Source: Candidatus Anstonellales archaeon
Lineage (GTDB): Archaea > Micrarchaeota > Micrarchaeia > Anstonellales > J096
Length of the DNA: 64,000 nucleotides
Assembly (NCBI GenBank): GCA_038890615.1
Contig: JAWAFI010000001.1
Span: forward strand, 227,836-291,835
Reading direction: 5' to 3'
Shown piece by piece: positions 1 to 49,142 of the stretch. The notes under the pieces are model-generated. The model saw only the letters and a program-made list of their open reading frames with translations. It searched no databases and was not told the DNA's origin. Position numbers and translations under genes: made by a program. Positions within the stretch are counted from its first letter, which is position 1, and the number at the start of each line of letters is the position of its first letter.

Positions 1-658
1 TATGCACCTTTCCTTTATAAGCATATTCAGCACTTCCTTTACTCTGGCAGGTGCAACAGAATGCTTTTGTGAGAATTCCTCAACGCTGAACTCCCCCTCA
101 TTGGCGGTTATCCATTTTATTATTAGGCTTTTCAGCTCATCATCGCCCAATGCCTCAAGCTCTGCTATCCTTGACTTCAGTGCATCGTTCTGCTTCTGGA
201 GCTCTTCAGTAAGGCGCAGGTTCTGCTCGTTGAGCGAAAGAAGCTCCTTATGCTTTTCCTGAAGCTCATCATAAGCTTTGGTTATTTCTACCATCGAGCC
301 CTTGCGCCTTATCTCTGCTGAAAGCACCTGGTTGCCTTCCCTAATAAGCGGAAGTATGGCTCCTGCAACTGAAGCGCCATCAAAATCGTAGAAGCCATCG
401 AGTGCCAGTATTAGCGAAAGTGCTGCCTCTGCTGCCTCCAATCCTCTTTTTGCAGAGCCGTTTGAATAGGTGAACTCAATCCCTTCAGCCCCAAGCTTTG
501 CAGAATACCAAACCGCTTTCTGCCCTTCGCTGTCTCTGCTCTCAACTATCTCAAAGCCAACCCAGCCGTCCTTGATCTCTACTGAGCTGAACCTAAACCC
601 CTTAAGCAAAGGGAGCAGTTCCTTTGCTGGCTTTTTCCTTGATCCTTTAATCATCATC
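1..658 (-). CDS. Partial CDS: coiled-coil protein, N-terminal 219 aa visible, C-terminus beyond the window start. Last visible gene of the VirB4-containing operon
   Basis: My own minus-strand translation from the ATG at 658 (MMIKGSRKKPAKELL...ELQEKHKELLSLNEQNLRLTEELQKQNDALKSRIAELEALGDD...IIKWITANEGEFSVEEF...) is open down to position 1. The start overlaps the ATPase stop. Plus-strand ORFs 2..262 and 470..739 are Ser-rich antisense artefacts. Confidence 0.45.
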
Positions 659-2059
659 AAGAACCACCTCAGCCACCTTGCCTTTTCTTGTGCTCATGAG
701 AGCAAAAGTGTTCATTATCTCCTCTTCCTTTGCCCCTAATGAGCGGAAAAGCATCATTATGCTTACCCTTGAAACCCCGAATGCCTGAAGCCTTTTTGCA
801 AGCTCAACTGAGTCAACGCTGCCTTCGTTGTCCTCAAAAAACTCCTTGATTGCTGTGACCTGCTGCTCCTCAAGCCCTGCCTCTTCCATAAGCCTAATCA
901 CCTTCTCCCTTTCTGCCTTGACATCCATCTTACCACCTATTGAATATACAAGGAACGGCTCTTCGCCTTCAACCCTTTCAAGCATGAACACCTCCTTGCC
1001 TGCCTTCTTCTTTGAAAATGCCATTGAAACCGCGCACTGCCCAACAGGGGCGCTTGCTATAGATTCCTCCACAAAAGAAGAGAACCCTAAGGACTTGCGC
1101 ATGTATTCCCTGCTTTTGCCTGAGATCATCCTGAACATGAAAGCAGTGCCTGAATTGCTCAGCACATCAGGATGTATGTCCTCAGGGCTTTGTGAAGCCA
1201 CTATGACCGAAAAGTTGTACTTGCGGCCTTCCCTGACTATTGCGATTAGGTCGCTCTCGTCGCTCCTTGCCACCTTCCATGCCTCATCAAGGACAACTAT
1301 GAGCTCAACGCCCTTGCTTTCACTTACCCCTTTTTTGCGCATTTTCTCCTTTATCAGCTGGAGCACTGCAAGCCCTGCAAGGCTTTTCATGTCCTCGCTT
1401 GGAAGCTGGCTTAGGTCTATGCAGGTAAGCCTTTTGCTGAGCACAGTGTCTATAGACATGCCTTCTGAAAAAACATCAGATCCCTGAATCATCATGGTCT
1501 TTACAAGGCGCGCTGCCTTGCTCTTGCTTTTTCTCAGCAAGGAATAGAGTGTCACTATGTCTTGCCTTTTCCTTGAGTACATCTTTTGCAATGCGTCCTC
1601 TATGTCCGCCCTTTCTTCTGGGTACTGCTTCAGCCCAAGCAGGATGTCCAATGCGCCCATTACTCCTTTTATCTTTTCCCCTGGGCTTATGCCTTGCAGG
1701 GAAAGAACATTGAATTTATGCTTGCCAAGCCTGTATACAGTGCCTCCTGCCTGCTCAACCCATCTAACGTACTCACCTACCCAATCTATTATTACGGTGT
1801 TTGTTTTCCAAAGTATAGAAGCTCTTGTTATGAATGTTTTTAGCAGGTAGCTCTTGCCGCTTCCGCTCATTCCAACAACAACTATGTGTGGGTTCACGAG
1901 CCGTGAAGGGTTCCACAGCACAGGCACCTTCCTGAAAAGGGTCCTTCCTATATAGACGCCTTCTGAAGCGCTTGAATATAGCGCAGCCCAGCTAGGCTCT
2001 GGAGCAGAAACAAGAGGCACAGCCCATGCTGTCCCGCTTGCAAAAAGCCTCTGCATCAT
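647..2059 (-). CDS. VirB4/TrbE/CedB-family secretion ATPase (HerA/FtsK superfamily P-loop NTPase)
   Basis: Walker A VVVGMSGSGKSYLLK, Walker B VVLDEAWK (DEAW is typical of VirB4/TrbE), VIVASQSPEDI SQ motif. The likely start is the ATG at 2059 (MMQRLF...), which forms an ATGA overlap with the upstream stop. Confidence 0.7.
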   Translation of the reverse strand: MMQRLFASGTAWAVPLVSAPEPSWAALYSSASEGVYIGRTLFRKVPVLWNPSRLVNPHIVVVGMSGSGKSYLLKTFITRASILWKTNTVIIDWVGEYVRWVEQAGGTVYRLGKHKFNVLSLQGISPGEKIKGVMGALDILLGLKQYPEERADIEDALQKMYSRKRQDIVTLYSLLRKSKSKAARLVKTMMIQGSDVFSEGMSIDTVLSKRLTCIDLSQLPSEDMKSLAGLAVLQLIKEKMRKKGVSESKGVELIVVLDEAWKVARSDESDLIAIVREGRKYNFSVIVASQSPEDIHPDVLSNSGTAFMFRMISGKSREYMRKSLGFSSFVEESIASAPVGQCAVSMAFSKKKAGKEVFMLERVEGEEPFLVYSIGGKMDVKAEREKVIRLMEEAGLEEQQVTAIKEFFEDNEGSVDSVELAKRLQAFGVSRVSIMMLFRSLGAKEEEIMNTFALMSTRKGKVAEVVLDDD

Positions 2060-2781
2060 TCTGCCACACCTGCAAGCTCCCAAAGCTCATTGTCCCTTGC
2101 AATTGAAACTTGGGCGTTTAATGCAGAGCCAAGTATGGTGCTAAGCTCCCTTGCATATGCCCTTGCCCTTGCCAGGCTTTCGTCCCTGCTGAAGCCAGAG
2201 GCATGGGTTGATGCGTACATCTGAACATCCACTGTCTTTTCGCCCTTGGCTATCCTTTCCAGCATCCTGTCCCACATTGAGCATTCCCTTTCAAGCCCCC
2301 TCCTCTCAAAATCGTCCCTTGCCTTGGAAAGCTTTGCCTCTGCATAGCTTCTCCTTTCCTTTATCTCATCAACCATTTTTGACATGTCAACAGGCGCAAC
2401 CCTCATTGAAATGCTGAATGGCAGGTTCACTGAAGATACAACCCTGTGGAAGTTCCTTAGCATGCCCAGCCCCTTGTCCTCGCTGTCTATTGCGCTTTCG
2501 TAGAGCCATATCTTAAGGAAGCAGTAAGCTATGTAGCCGTCTTTCGATGAGGTGACAAGCGCATCCCTTTCAGGGACCATCTCATACCTTCCCCTTTTCT
2601 CTGCGATTCCCAAGCTCTTTGTTACTTTTGGGAAGAAAACATTGCCATAGTTATGCACTGCAACTGCAAGAAGGGCAAAGAAGGCGCAGGCTGCTGCAAA
2701 AAGGGCAGAGCCAAGCGCGATTGCAAGCGCAAAAGAAAGCACGCAAAACCCAAACAGCAGGTAAAATGAAACATCTTTCAT
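2056..2781 (-). CDS. Membrane-anchored protein with two N-terminal TM helices and a charged, coiled-coil-like soluble domain. Component of the VirB4 operon
   Basis: Hydrophobic N-terminus FYLLFGFCVLSFALAIALGSALFAAACAFFALLAVAV, then a Glu/Arg-rich domain. The start at 2781 (MKDVSFYLL) makes an ATGA overlap with the upstream gene, and the stop overlaps the ATPase start. Confidence 0.4.
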   Translation of the reverse strand: MKDVSFYLLFGFCVLSFALAIALGSALFAAACAFFALLAVAVHNYGNVFFPKVTKSLGIAEKRGRYEMVPERDALVTSSKDGYIAYCFLKIWLYESAIDSEDKGLGMLRNFHRVVSSVNLPFSISMRVAPVDMSKMVDEIKERRSYAEAKLSKARDDFERRGLERECSMWDRMLERIAKGEKTVDVQMYASTHASGFSRDESLARARAYARELSTILGSALNAQVSIARDNELWELAGVAE

Positions 2782-3677
2782 ATGATACCACCCGGAATGC
2801 TGGGGCCTAAGGTCCATTCTACTACCACTACCAATGATACAATAGCCCCAATCAAAGGCACTATCAGAAAGTATACAAGCTCGGCGCTTATTGCCCTGTT
2901 GACTGCCTGCACTGCGTAAAGTATGTCTTCCACAAATCTCCCTTGGCTAAGCTGGTCAAGCTTTTCTGCAACTGCATAGTTGCTGTTTATCTGGGCAACA
3001 GGAGGGGAGCTGTAAAGCGGGTTTTCAAGCACAGACGATACTGCCTGCTTGGCATCAGAAATCACTTCATCAGGAAACTGGACCATTAGGAAGATTGCTG
3101 GAAAAAGCAGGAAGAAGGAGAAGGAGAATGCAACAAGGAAGTTTCCAGCCCTTCTTGTGATGAAGAAAGCGCGCAGCAAAAGGCCAAGGGGCAGAAGGAA
3201 GGAAAAGGCAGCTGCCTCTATTAGCTCGGAGAAAGAATGCGCCAACCCGATCATTGCTGTGCTTAAGAGAAGGAGGTTAAGCTGTATTGAAATGAGGCCT
3301 GCAAGGTGGGAAAGGTTGGCAAGCGGGGCTATTGTTACCTGCGAAAAGTCAAGCACAAGCGATTGGTAATAGCCAACAAGCATTGAAAGCTGGGAATGGA
3401 GGTCAATGAGCTCAGTTGTTTCTTGCGCAATTCCGGTAAGGTAGCATGGGATAATCCCTATGCCCCCCCTTTCACAGCCCTGGAGGGTTACGATGCTCAA
3501 CGAAAGGGCTTCGATTAGGGCAAATGAGCCAACTATTGCTGCATTGATCACTGCCTGGAAAAGCTCATCTTTACCCATAAGGGAAAGCCTTGTGATGCCA
3601 AATGCAGTGCCTATGCCGAGGAGCATCCCTCCTAAAACTACAGTTATGCCAACAGCAGCTGCTGCAAGCTCAAGCAT
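2778..3677 (-). CDS. Polytopic integral membrane protein (about 6-7 TM), VirB6/CedA-like candidate
   Basis: 299 aa and strongly hydrophobic throughout (LGGMLLGIGTAFGI..., LLLSTAMIGLAHSF..., FSFSFFLLFPAIFLMV..., LIVPLIGAIVSLVVVV). It lies between the 2-TM small protein and the ATPase. Confidence 0.4.
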   Translation of the reverse strand: MLELAAAAVGITVVLGGMLLGIGTAFGITRLSLMGKDELFQAVINAAIVGSFALIEALSLSIVTLQGCERGGIGIIPCYLTGIAQETTELIDLHSQLSMLVGYYQSLVLDFSQVTIAPLANLSHLAGLISIQLNLLLLSTAMIGLAHSFSELIEAAAFSFLLPLGLLLRAFFITRRAGNFLVAFSFSFFLLFPAIFLMVQFPDEVISDAKQAVSSVLENPLYSSPPVAQINSNYAVAEKLDQLSQGRFVEDILYAVQAVNRAISAELVYFLIVPLIGAIVSLVVVVEWTLGPSIPGGII

Positions 3678-3681
3678 AGCC

Positions 3682-3939
3682 CTAAGCCGGCTTAAGCAAC
3701 CCTGATGAGACCTGCACTATTATGTCTGATGCCCCTGCTATTGCGGCTATTATGACTCCGCCTATAAACATGCCTATGGCTGTTGACTGCCATCTGCCCC
3801 TTACTTCTGCAGGCTGTGTGGCGCTTAGGCCATAGATAATCCCTGCAAGGACAATCAGGAGGACTCCGACCATTGGGGCGATCTCTTTGAGGCCGCTGTA
3901 CATGTCCGTAAGGACCTGCTGTAATTGAATCGCAAACAC
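3682..3939 (-). CDS. Small two-TM membrane protein, VirB2/TrbC pilin-like or CedA1-like
   Basis: 85 aa. Two hydrophobic helices (IAPMVGVLLIVLAGIIYGL and TAIGMFIGGVIIAAIAGA) are separated by a short charged loop (AEVRGRWQS). It is the first gene of the operon, and the minus-strand TATA sits about 25 nt upstream of its ATG. Confidence 0.4.
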   Translation of the reverse strand: MFAIQLQQVLTDMYSGLKEIAPMVGVLLIVLAGIIYGLSATQPAEVRGRWQSTAIGMFIGGVIIAAIAGASDIIVQVSSGLLKPA

Positions 3940-4041: not shown

Positions 4042-5259
4042 ATGGCAGATACAAAATCAGTTTATGTTATTGCAGCAGTGCTGCTGGTGCTGGCAGCAGC
4101 AGTGGCATTCGTGCTTATGCAGAAGCCAGTGATGCAAGTGCCCCTCAACAAGCAGTTTGATTTGCGGGAAGGGGAAACAATGAAAATAGAAGGAGCAATT
4201 GAAGTGAAATTCATAAGGATAGTTTCTGATTCCAGATGCCCGGCAGGGGTTAAGTGCGTATGGGCAGGGGAGGCAGTGGCAGAGATAGAGGCAAAGAACG
4301 GGAGCGAAAGCTATGGGCTTTACAACCTCTCTTCCCTTTACCCAGAGAAGGGCGCTGTAAGCGTAAAGGGGTTCACGATAAGGATGCTCAAGGTTGAGCC
4401 GCAGAAAGAGCAAGGCGAAAAGCCATTGGATTATGTAGTAACATTTGTTGTTACCAAGGAGAATGTCAGCGATTTTGAGAGCTGCGCAGCTGCTGGCTAT
4501 CCCATAATGGAATCCTACCCAAGGCAGTGCAGGGCTTCTGATGGGCGGCTTTTTGTTGAGCAGGTTGCGCCCCTTTGCATGGAAAACTCTGATTGCGCAA
4601 CCGGCTTCTGCAAGGAAGGGGTTTGCTCAACCTTCCAGCCATCCTTTTCGTGCTCTGCTGATTCTGACTGCATCTTAATAAACCAAGAGAACAAGCTCGG
4701 GTGCTGCTGGGCTGGATACTGCGATGCCATAGATTATTCAAAGGAGGAGTGGATAGCAGTGAATAAGCAGTGGTTCAGCTCTGAAAGGGAGCTTTACTGC
4801 CCTCCAGAAGAGGAATGCGGGCCTTCGCCAGAATGCCCAACAGTGGTGGTCAACAGCAGCTATGAAGCAAAATGCATTGAAGGGGTTTGCGAAAAGGCGC
4901 AGGTTTTGCCTTATGATGTGGAGGCAAGTATAGGAAATGAATTTTCGCTCAGGATAGGCGAGGCAGCCCTTATAAAAGGGCATGGGATTTATATAAAGGT
5001 TGGGGATGTTGCTGCTGATTCTAGGTGCCCAGAAGGAGTGCAGTGCGTATGGGCAGGGGAGGCAGTTGTGATAGTTGAGGCCTACAAAGGAAGTGTTTTG
5101 CTAGGGGTGTTCAATCTCTCAACGCTCGACCAAACCAAAAGAGCAGGTGGGTTTGGAAGCTACTCTGTGGAGCTTGTAAAGGTTGAGCCTGCAAAGCAAG
5201 CCGGGAAGAACATAGCAAAGGAAGACTACATAATAAAGCTAAGCGTCTCTAGGGCATAA
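4042..5259 (+). CDS. Secreted or membrane-anchored Cys-rich protein with an internally duplicated domain
   Basis: N-terminal TM/signal (VYVIAAVLLVLAAAVAFVL). Repeats: ...FIRIVSDSRCPAGVKCVWAGEAVAEIEAK...LKVEP and ...YIKVGDVAADSRCPEGVQCVWAGEAVVIVEAY...LVKVEP. The central part is Cys-rich (CMENSDCATGFCKEGVC...). Confidence 0.55.
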   Translation: MADTKSVYVIAAVLLVLAAAVAFVLMQKPVMQVPLNKQFDLREGETMKIEGAIEVKFIRIVSDSRCPAGVKCVWAGEAVAEIEAKNGSESYGLYNLSSLYPEKGAVSVKGFTIRMLKVEPQKEQGEKPLDYVVTFVVTKENVSDFESCAAAGYPIMESYPRQCRASDGRLFVEQVAPLCMENSDCATGFCKEGVCSTFQPSFSCSADSDCILINQENKLGCCWAGYCDAIDYSKEEWIAVNKQWFSSERELYCPPEEECGPSPECPTVVVNSSYEAKCIEGVCEKAQVLPYDVEASIGNEFSLRIGEAALIKGHGIYIKVGDVAADSRCPEGVQCVWAGEAVVIVEAYKGSVLLGVFNLSTLDQTKRAGGFGSYSVELVKVEPAKQAGKNIAKEDYIIKLSVSRA

Positions 5260-7626: not shown

Positions 7627-7627
7627 G

Positions 7628-7700
7628 TGGGCCCGCCCGGATTCGAACCGGGAACCTCCACTGTGTGAGAGTGGCGTCATAGCCATTGGACCACGGGCCC
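7628..7700 (-). tRNA. tRNA-Val (anticodon CAC)
   Basis: The reverse complement folds as a cloverleaf: GGGCCCG acceptor, anticodon stem CCACT/AGTGG with loop CTCACAC, T-arm CCCGGTTCGAATCCGGG, discriminator A. ORF 7452..7661 overlapping it is spurious. Confidence 0.9.
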
Positions 7701-29316: not shown

Positions 29317-29318
29317 AA

Positions 29319-29391
29319 TGGGCCCGCCCGGATTCGAACCGGGAATCTTCACCGTGTCAGGGTGACGTCATAGCCATTGGACCACGGGCCC
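29319..29391 (-). tRNA. tRNA-Val (anticodon GAC)
   Basis: Near-identical to the tRNA at 7628..7700 except for the anticodon arm (stem TCACC/GGTGA, loop CTGACAC) and one variable-loop base. Confidence 0.9.
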
Positions 29392-29916
29392 AAAATGATA
29401 AACCCTTACATATATCAAATATTTAAAATCTATGCAGGGGATTGGAATCCAGAAGTAATTTTAAATGACAAATTGATGATTAGACAAACAGGCGATAGAT
29501 TATATGCAACAATTGATAGTTATAAATACTACCATCTTAACAATATTAATCTTAAAGATACAAGTTTAGATATAAAGTATGTATTGGCATTATTGAATTC
29601 TAAAATGATGTCTGCATATTATCTATTAGTTACATTAGAAAAAGAAAGAGTTATGGCACAAACTGATATAGAAACCCTCGAAAAATTACCAATTAAGGAA
29701 ATAGAAAAGGAAAAACAGCAACCCCTCATCAAACTCGTTGACAAAATGCTTTCCCTCAACAAGCGCCTAAATGAAATCGGCGACAAAAAGACAGATGAAA
29801 GAGCAAAAATTGAGGAAGAAATAAAAAAGACTGACGCTGAGATTGATGAGCTCGTTTATAAGATTTATGGCATAACTGAAGAGGAGAAGAAGATCATCGA
29901 AGAAAGTATGAAGTAA
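29392..29916 (+). pseudogene. C-terminal remnant of a restriction-modification-type DNA methyltransferase (TaqI-like target-recognition/C-terminal domain)
   Basis: Very AT-rich. KYVLALLNSKMMSAYYLL and ...TDAEIDELVYKIYGITEEEKKIIEE are hallmark C-terminal MTase motifs. The N-terminal catalytic part is absent, and the ORF start would lie inside the tRNA. Confidence 0.5.

Positions 29917-49026: not shown

Positions 49027-49142
<116 letters not shown>

Follow-up and report, generated by a model that had tools for sequence, protein, structure and literature searches.

A chromosomal operon with a split VirB4-type ATPase in Micrarchaeota and its likeness to the Ced and Ted systems

In Sulfolobales and Desulfurococcales, the Ced system (CedA, CedA1, CedA2, CedB, CedD and CedE) is a chromosomal, relaxase-less machine derived from a type IV secretion system (T4SS). 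The Ted system of Thermoproteales (TedA, TedB and TedC) is a trio of VirB6-, VirB4- and VirB2-like proteins domesticated on the chromosome (PMC9905601). Here we describe a five-gene operon, A to E, at the left end of a 64,000-nucleotide (nt) stretch of DNA (the window; positions 227,836–291,835 of contig JAWAFI010000001.1, assembly GCA_038890615.1) from a metagenome-assembled genome of a Candidatus Anstonellales archaeon (Micrarchaeota, DPANN). Its central feature is a VirB4-type motor divided over two genes, C for the N-terminal half and D for the ATPase domain. The reading that we favour, and hold to be reasonably probable, is a resident, vertically inherited, minimal T4SS-derived translocon of the Ced/Ted kind that is not an orthologue of Ced. 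Three traits set the operon apart from Ced and Ted: VirB4 is split, there is a dedicated partner protein with a winged helix and a coiled coil, and only in one subclade does the pilin gene lie next to the other genes.

A literature search, with most subscription journals outside its reach, returned no paper tying Micrarchaeota or DPANN to Ced, to CedB or to a VirB2/VirB6/VirB4 operon. The paper on Ced and Ted does not mention DPANN, the survey in the CedD/CedE paper was confined to Crenarchaeota, and a 2025 review of T4SSs gives archaeal systems only as plasmid conjugation. The terms secretion, pili, conjugation, HerA and VirB do not appear in a comparative genomics study from 2025 that covers 163 Micrarchaeota genomes. 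VirB4-like ATPases have already been noted in the SPEARE loci of nanohaloarchaea (PMC10266531).

A VirB4-type ATPase split between two genes

One genome per species was scanned for relatives of D, which were found in 422 species genomes. We examined ~17 kb around each homologue in the best 80 loci, which together with the window's own contig make 81 (cited below, where needed, by L numbers), and counted the components with jackhmmer on the open reading frames of the loci. A preliminary description of the window had assigned the ATPase to the VirB4/TrbE/CedB group and not to HerA, and motifs and profiles both bear this out. D contains the Walker A sequence GSGKS, the Walker B sequence LDEAW and the motif ASQSP. 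In Pfam it matches AAA_10 (E-value 4e-20) and DUF87 (3e-14), and its best NCBIfam model is CedB (5e-27, 94.7 bits; D 31–296 on model positions 250–520 of 590), followed by CD1110 VirB4 (1e-18), CedD (1e-16), VirB4_plasma (6e-15) and then HerA (~1e-12). The order CedB, monoderm VirB4, HerA holds in 26/26 members of the D family. The best E-values over these members are 7e-33 for CedB, 2.5e-28 for CD1110, 3e-22 for VirB4_plasma, 1.5e-21 for CedD, 7e-21 for TraC, 1.6e-19 for VirB4_CagE and 1.5e-16 for HerA, which puts CedB ~16 orders of magnitude ahead of HerA; the CedB, CD1110, VirB4_plasma, TraC and VirB4_CagE models each match 24–26 of the 26, all above HerA. When D was aligned with four monoderm plasmid VirB4 proteins in hhalign, residues 51–369 fell on the C-terminal ATPase domains over 313 columns (probability 99.7%, E-value 1e-26). 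D therefore possesses the VirB4-family ATPase domain, the signature protein of a T4SS.

D did not reach the equivalog cutoff of the CedB model (NF041017, 700 bits), its 94.7 bits coming from model positions 250–520 only. Since no curated cutoff was reached, D is a VirB4-clade ATPase and not an orthologue of a named family; one entry of the D family in the database is auto-named 'DNA import protein CedB'. Only ~30 residues precede the P-loop domain, indicating that the N-terminal domain seen in VirB4 and CedB is missing from D. At its other end, D has a conserved helical tail of ~105–125 amino acids (aa; window positions 647–961), with a faint calmodulin/EF-hand-like match (E-value 0.014) in which the loop is shortened.

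The N-terminal domain is found in the neighbouring gene: C is the detached N-terminal half of VirB4/CedB, and the ATPase is a split gene. C opens with a two-helix, VirB3-like transmembrane (TM) hairpin (residues ~3–46), which is followed by a charged soluble alpha/beta domain. The C of the window by itself matched nothing in Pfam or NCBIfam. In the C family (n=41), the three most-matched NCBIfam families are all of the VirB4 type, namely VirB4_plasma with 13 members, CedB with 10 (best E-value 9.5e-5) and CD1110 with 7, and the matches, individually weak, always lie in the N-terminal parts of the models. Residues 16–192 align to CedB positions 9–174 of 590, residues 113–172 to CD1110 positions 223–282 of 752, and residues 76–162 to VirB4_plasma positions 117–200 of 894. 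C thus joins a VirB4 N-terminal domain to a VirB3-like membrane anchor, as in a T4SS. A profile search against PDB sequences gave chance-level matches only, and hhalign of the C family against TrwK, four monoderm VirB4 proteins and PrgI was negative with templates of only 1–4 sequences. The preliminary description had recognised a membrane-anchored protein with a charged domain; that architecture stands, and the protein can now be assigned.

The junction between C and D is an insertion hot spot. In 14 loci (L005, L016, L022, L030, L042–L044, L046, L049, L052, L055, L058, L065 and L066), 0.6–7.6 kb of mostly unrelated genes lie between the two halves, which indicates that C and D are truly separate genes and not a single gene broken by a frameshift. 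Proteins of ~1200 aa are encoded inside the insertion in three loci.

Membrane proteins, partner protein and operon layout

B is a candidate VirB6/CedA-like channel. It has ~6 TM helices, two conserved extracellular cysteines and a conserved cytoplasmic TR(K/R)xGGF motif, and its best long structural match is VirB6/TrwI, which is the weakest link of the reading. The assignment as a VirB6/CedA-like protein with six or seven TM helices in the preliminary description agrees with the topology and with this match, but was not supported by a Foldseek search of B against PDB (no significant match), by Pfam (no family matched by B and its distant relatives), or by hhalign of the B family against TrwI and two CD1112 VirB6 proteins. 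The last comparison again used templates of 1–4 sequences only, so that the hhalign negatives for B and C are uninformative rather than refuting. The CedA model (NF041796) was matched by only 2 of 50 B-family members (E-value 0.048), and B is not a CedA orthologue by this measure. A word-index homologue search fails on these membrane proteins, returning three hits with B alone and three with a B and C alignment, two of which were the same B relatives; further homologues were taken from a search of protein representatives and from exact look-ups of sequences derived from the loci.

In most Micrarchaeota (L012, L030, L043, L046, L062 and others) B is 350–386 aa long and exceeds the window's B by 40–80 residues. 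The added residues form an insertion rich in N-x-S/T, presumably N-glycosylated, in the last extracellular loop, and the same lineages lack an adjacent pilin gene. We considered whether a pilin domain had been fused to the longer proteins and rejected this, the addition lying in an extracellular loop and not at the N-terminus. Distant members of the B family form tandem arrays of 3–5 paralogues with very large extracellular insertions (L082, 1–10427; L084/L085, 3423–7296). The copies in L082 measure 1284, 749, 353 and 337 aa, with a cut copy of 261 aa, and are followed by a Cys-rich secreted protein; those in L084/L085 measure 536, 291–323 and 431 aa; no homologue of C, D or E is present on these short contigs. 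Such arrays are reminiscent of the multiplied VirB6 paralogues in Rickettsiales.

A has two TM helices around a positively charged loop, QPAEVRGRWQ, conserved in its family as QPxExRG(K/R)W, and its N-terminus has no signal-peptide-like character, as in CedA1. An alternative ATG would give a protein of 73 aa; the syntenic homologues start with MAYIETLL and align upstream of that ATG, favouring the 85-aa form that begins with GTG. The window's A matches the Pfam family T4SS_pilin (PF18895) at 18.9 bits (E-value 0.0016), short of the gathering threshold of 26.6. Of its 14 syntenic homologues, which are 44–59% identical to it, 12 match PF18895 and five match TrbC/VirB2 (PF04956); two of them, at 28.0 and 29.3 bits, exceed the TrbC gathering score of 27.9 over the mature-pilin part of the profile. 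A VirB2/TrbC-type pilin is thus recognised at the level of the family, the window's own A being sub-threshold, and the two-helix architecture together with the family members past the Pfam threshold upholds the earlier view of A as VirB2/TrbC/CedA1-like. A profile search of A against PDB sequences gave chance-level matches only.

E begins with a poorly conserved part of ~100 aa, has a coiled coil in the middle and ends in a winged helix. Searched against PDB sequences, its profile weakly matches the winged helix of Sulfolobus ESCRT-III/CdvB (2xvc, E-value 0.006), the other matches being at chance level. In Pfam, 18 of 40 members match EAP30/Vps36 (EAP30), and many coiled-coil families are matched too. 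E follows D directly in 80/81 loci, which makes it a core component, and it may act in the cytoplasm as an adaptor for DNA or for the motor.

All five genes announced in the preliminary description are present and co-directional on the minus strand (Table 1). Of the three ATGA overlaps reported there, those at B/C and C/D are exact, whereas D and E share ATGATGATTAA (8 or 11 nt); between A and B there is a gap of 4 nt. E had been taken to run off the window, with more components expected beyond position 1. As seen on L001, a Logan contig carrying the same genes, only three codons and the stop of E fall outside, and the next gene is an opposite-strand Sua5/YrdC gene; the operon is therefore complete at five genes. 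A TATA-like box, TTTATAAA, lies 20 nt upstream of the GTG of A and is a putative archaeal promoter of the operon, its spacing making a leaderless or near-leaderless transcript plausible. The promoter and terminator scan used bacterial models and is not informative for an archaeon.

Table 1. Features of the operon in the window, with positions on the 64,000-nt stretch
Feature	Position	Strand	Description
TATA-like box TTTATAAA	3960..3967	-	putative archaeal operon promoter; read from sequence
Gene A	3682..3939	-	85 aa from GTG; VirB2/TrbC-like pilin candidate
Gene B	2778..3677	-	299 aa; polytopic; VirB6/CedA-like channel candidate
Gene C	2056..2781	-	241 aa; TM hairpin and VirB4/CedB N-terminal domain
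Gene D	647..2059	-	470 aa; VirB4/CedB-type P-loop ATPase domain
Gene E	1..657	-	222 aa, of which 219 aa lie in the window; coiled coil, winged helix

Phylum-wide conservation and chromosomal setting

The best 80 loci carry the labels Micrarchaeota, Micrarchaeia, Anstonellales, Bilamarchaeaceae, 'ainarchaeum' or unclassified archaeon. In the 81 loci D is present in 81, E in 80, C in 72, B in 61 and A in 17, and the order B-C-D-E on one strand is kept in almost all of them. This recurrence, in ~60–80 of the 81 loci, shows that the arrangement is not a chance pattern of reading frames. Far from being peculiar to this genome, the system is a chromosomal trait conserved across the phylum Micrarchaeota.

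The surroundings of the operon are those of a chromosome. Downstream of E, most loci have purD, a gene for a transglutaminase-like secreted protein, a geranylgeranyl reductase gene and a GGGP synthase-like gene; on L001, the opposite-strand Sua5/YrdC gene is joined beyond E by genes for a Na+/H+ exchanger, a methyltransferase and a peptidase M24. Upstream of A lie genes for a divergent Cys-rich secreted protein, a CxxCxxCC protein and a glycosyltransferase, as well as translation and transcription genes. Neither integrase, relaxase or VirD4 nor NurA, Mre11 or Rad50 is encoded near the operon on the window's contig, VirD4 and relaxase, which would mark conjugative DNA export, are absent within 8–10 kb on this contig and in the 80 related loci, and the borders of the operon have no att-like repeat or tRNA target. 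The guanine-plus-cytosine (GC) content, which had been called not deviant, is slightly higher in the operon than in the rest of the window (48.6% vs 45.6%). On viral contigs, D has five remote matches that span short or partial stretches and reach no more than 38% identity, and its relatives on plasmids are remote, with less than 30% identity. The conserved chromosomal synteny, the housekeeping context and the lack of close plasmid or viral relatives together argue for a resident and vertically inherited system. The earlier suggestion of a resident system rather than a recently integrated plasmid is thereby strengthened; the two checks proposed with it, on the flank beyond position 1 and on synteny in relatives, gave no mobile-element gene or att site and the recurring B-C-D-E order, respectively.

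The transglutaminase-like protein, a label that is the reading of one representative sequence, has ~410 aa, is secreted and bears a C-terminal TM anchor; its gene occurs in 50 loci of L002–L081, ~2.4–7 kb downstream of D and between purD and the geranylgeranyl reductase gene, and is absent from the corresponding position in the window's genome. Divergent from A, at 4042–5259 on the plus strand, is a gene whose product, 405 aa long and with 20 Cys, is secreted or anchored. Both ends of this protein carry a domain of ~110 aa with the motif DSRCPxGVxCVWAGEAV (residues 30–139 and 292–404; local score 208) and the middle is Cys-rich; this neighbour is not conserved beside the operon in other Micrarchaeota. 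A 5S rRNA gene at 49028–49142 on the plus strand is the only rRNA gene within the window, and two tRNA-Val genes lie on the minus strand at 7627–7700 and 29318–29392, with anticodons CAC and GAC.

Described relatives, rival explanations and meaning

Among the characterised systems, the DNA-importing Ced and Ted are the closest analogues. Ced and the operon each have a VirB4-like ATPase, a polytopic protein of the VirB6 type (a candidate in the operon) and a VirB2-like pilin of two helices that shows no obvious signal peptide. The model with the highest score is CedB for D and the N-terminal part of CedB for C. In both systems the VirB4 N-terminal domain is not confined to one polypeptide (in Ced it is shared by CedB and CedD, PMC11868833; here it lies on C), and the channel protein or candidate has an N-terminal hairpin that resembles the pilin (PMC9905601). 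The systems are not orthologous, however, with 94.7 bits against the 700 required for CedB and with CedA essentially undetected. In addition, the N-terminal domain here resides on a polypeptide without an ATPase domain, a true split, in contrast to two full paralogues in Ced. The Micrarchaeota operon has an extra conserved protein, E, while no CedA2 is found and no CedD-like second ATPase was seen within ~8–10 kb. Its pilin gene is adjacent in one subclade only, and its host is a mesophilic-to-thermophilic DPANN symbiont as opposed to a hyperthermophilic crenarchaeon. Ted, which we compared by gene content and description, shares the trio of proteins; it differs in that ParA/VirC1-like, HerA and Rad50 genes, common in Ted loci, occur in 0/81 loci here, that TedB is a full-length VirB4, and that TedC has a cleavable signal peptide whereas A has none, A resembling the unprocessed CedA1 and not TedC or VirB2 (PMC9905601).

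Further parallels come from other systems. The T4SS of Patescibacteria (candidate phyla radiation, CPR), derived from the FATA class of mating-pair formation systems (MPF-FATA), is near-universal in an ultrasmall, host-dependent phylum, chromosomal and mostly relaxase-less (PMC12102498, PMC12857230), and pilins of the PF18895/TrbC type occur in both systems. It is bacterial, though, with a full-length VirB4 that belongs to its own bacterial clade, and it includes VirB8/PrgL, VirB1 and often a VirD4-like protein. The MPF-FATA modules of monoderms and archaeal plasmids, of which we fetched examples with Maff2 or a pilin, CD1112 VirB6, PrgI VirB3 and CD1110 VirB4, share the order pilin or small membrane protein, VirB6-like, VirB3-like, VirB4, and the C-terminal domain of their VirB4 is the one to which D aligns with 99.7% probability. 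They differ in residing on mobile elements with VirD4, relaxase, single-stranded-DNA-binding protein (SSB) and cell-wall hydrolases and in having VirB4 as a single protein of 800–900 aa, and B has no detectable sequence similarity to CD1112 VirB6. The VirB4/TraG-like ATPases linked to SPEARE in Nanohaloarchaeota belong to another DPANN lineage and have a proposed role in host interaction (PMC10266531); in that case, giant surface proteins with Ig-like repeats carry the ATPase domain as a fusion, and neither VirB2/VirB6-like partners nor a split VirB4 have been described.

The ranking of the ATPase models, the pilin family and the VirB6/TrwI match together support the core of the preliminary description, a Ced/Ted-like or minimal conjugation-like module. 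If the operon encodes a translocon of this kind, its parts would be expected to assemble as follows. C, anchored in the membrane by its VirB3-like hairpin and bearing the VirB4 N-terminal domain, would associate with D and thereby reconstitute a whole VirB4-like motor on the cytoplasmic side. This motor would dock on B, which would act as the channel through the membrane. In this genome's subclade, the motor could also pull A out of the membrane and build it into a short pilus or conduit, and E, via its coiled coil and winged helix, might serve as a cytoplasmic adaptor for the substrate (DNA) or for the motor. With neither relaxase nor VirD4 in the locus and with chromosomal inheritance throughout the phylum, plasmid conjugation is unlikely. 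The translocon would more plausibly move DNA between the host-dependent nano-archaeon and another cell, probably by import as in Ced.

Several points weigh against the Ced/Ted-like translocon. No component passes a curated orthologue cutoff. The solved structures that match D with the lowest E-value are HerA-type defence ATPases (9e-19), although the C-terminal domain of Thermoanaerobacter VirB4 (4ag5, 1e-10) is matched over a longer stretch; that HerA comes first says more about which structures are available than about true affinity. Only 17/81 loci, those with a short B and with tight overlaps like those of the window, have the pilin gene next to the others, so that a pilus may not be a general feature of the system. 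Finally, the substrate and the direction of transport are ones that we infer.

A wider proposal, which we put forward tentatively and hold to be well short of probable, is that the operon represents a split-VirB4 T4SS of all Micrarchaeota, perhaps of more DPANN lineages, that is the counterpart of the Patescibacteria system. It would be a conduit for host DNA, nucleotides or macromolecules and a core part of episymbiosis, rather than a repair aid as in Sulfolobales. Somewhat less likely still is that the same T4SS-derived machine serves host interaction of the Patescibacteria type, translocating proteins or taking up host macromolecules through a pilus-like conduit. The parallel in lifestyle and setting, a phylum-wide, chromosomal and relaxase-less system, speaks for it, as does the best Pfam match of A, PF18895, one of the two VirB2-like pilin profiles used in the survey of Patescibacteria (PMC12102498). 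The Patescibacteria T4SS is stated to be required for epibiotic growth (PMC12857230), and VirB4-like domains have been linked to host interaction in nanohaloarchaea (PMC10266531). However, the closest characterised relatives by score, CedB and CedD, import DNA (PMC11868833), the winged helix of E would suit DNA binding, and no effector-like genes are conserved in the neighbourhood.

The remaining explanations fare much worse. D belongs to the FtsK/HerA/VirB4 superfamily, the core of the operon is universal and chromosomal, and the winged helix of E is most similar to those of Sulfolobus ESCRT-III/CdvB and ESCRT-II EAP30, all of which would fit a membrane-anchored FtsK/HerA-superfamily DNA pump that acts in segregating chromosomes or in cell division, E being an adaptor related to division. 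We regard such a pump as improbable: the FtsK match of D is restricted to the P-loop (E-value 8.5e-4, residues 56–80), the similarity of E is weak, and the pilin-like and VirB6-like partners together with the VirB4 N-terminal domain point to T4SS ancestry. Slightly more improbable is that an integrated conjugative plasmid or integrative and conjugative element left the operon as a remnant or carries it as cargo, as might be suggested by the gene order of monoderm conjugation modules and the slightly raised GC. Largely refuted by the missing integrase, relaxase, VirD4, att-like repeat and border tRNA target, by the conserved housekeeping neighbourhood in ~80 species-level genomes and by the absence of close relatives from plasmids and viral contigs, this reading was rejected on the last two grounds. 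Least probable of all, and likewise rejected, is a HerA-type DNA-repair or anti-phage ATPase module beside membrane proteins by chance, for which the DUF87/HerA central domain of D and its solved-structure matches could be adduced: HerA models score far below those of CedB and all VirB4 types in 26/26 members, D has no N-terminal HAS-barrel region, the separate half C matches VirB4 and not HerA, and NurA, Mre11, Rad50, Sir2 or another effector accompanies it in 0/81 loci, so that neither the clustering with HerA-NurA or FtsK nor the repair-gene neighbours named beforehand as evidence against a VirB4-type system were found.

The favoured reading, a Ced/Ted-like translocon, bears on how DPANN archaea acquire what they cannot make and exchange material with their hosts, processes for which there have been few molecular candidates so far. 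Its conservation across the phylum suggests a resident channel that moves DNA or other large molecules over the membrane, and the operon is a concrete, conserved and small set of genes for study in the few cultivated pairs of Micrarchaeota and host. It would extend domesticated T4SS-derived systems, which in the form of Ced and Ted have been described so far in Crenarchaeota only, to an archaeal phylum that branches deeply. With VirB4 naturally divided into a protein with the anchor and the N-terminal domain and a protein with the ATPase, the operon provides a ready-made dissection of the motor, which together with CedB and CedD bears on how the N-terminal domain works. The parallel with the essential T4SS of Patescibacteria suggests convergent or ancient use of such machines by both radiations of nano-sized symbionts, and if the proposal of a conduit for acquisition from the host is true, the operon would be a core determinant of the episymbiotic lifestyle of DPANN.

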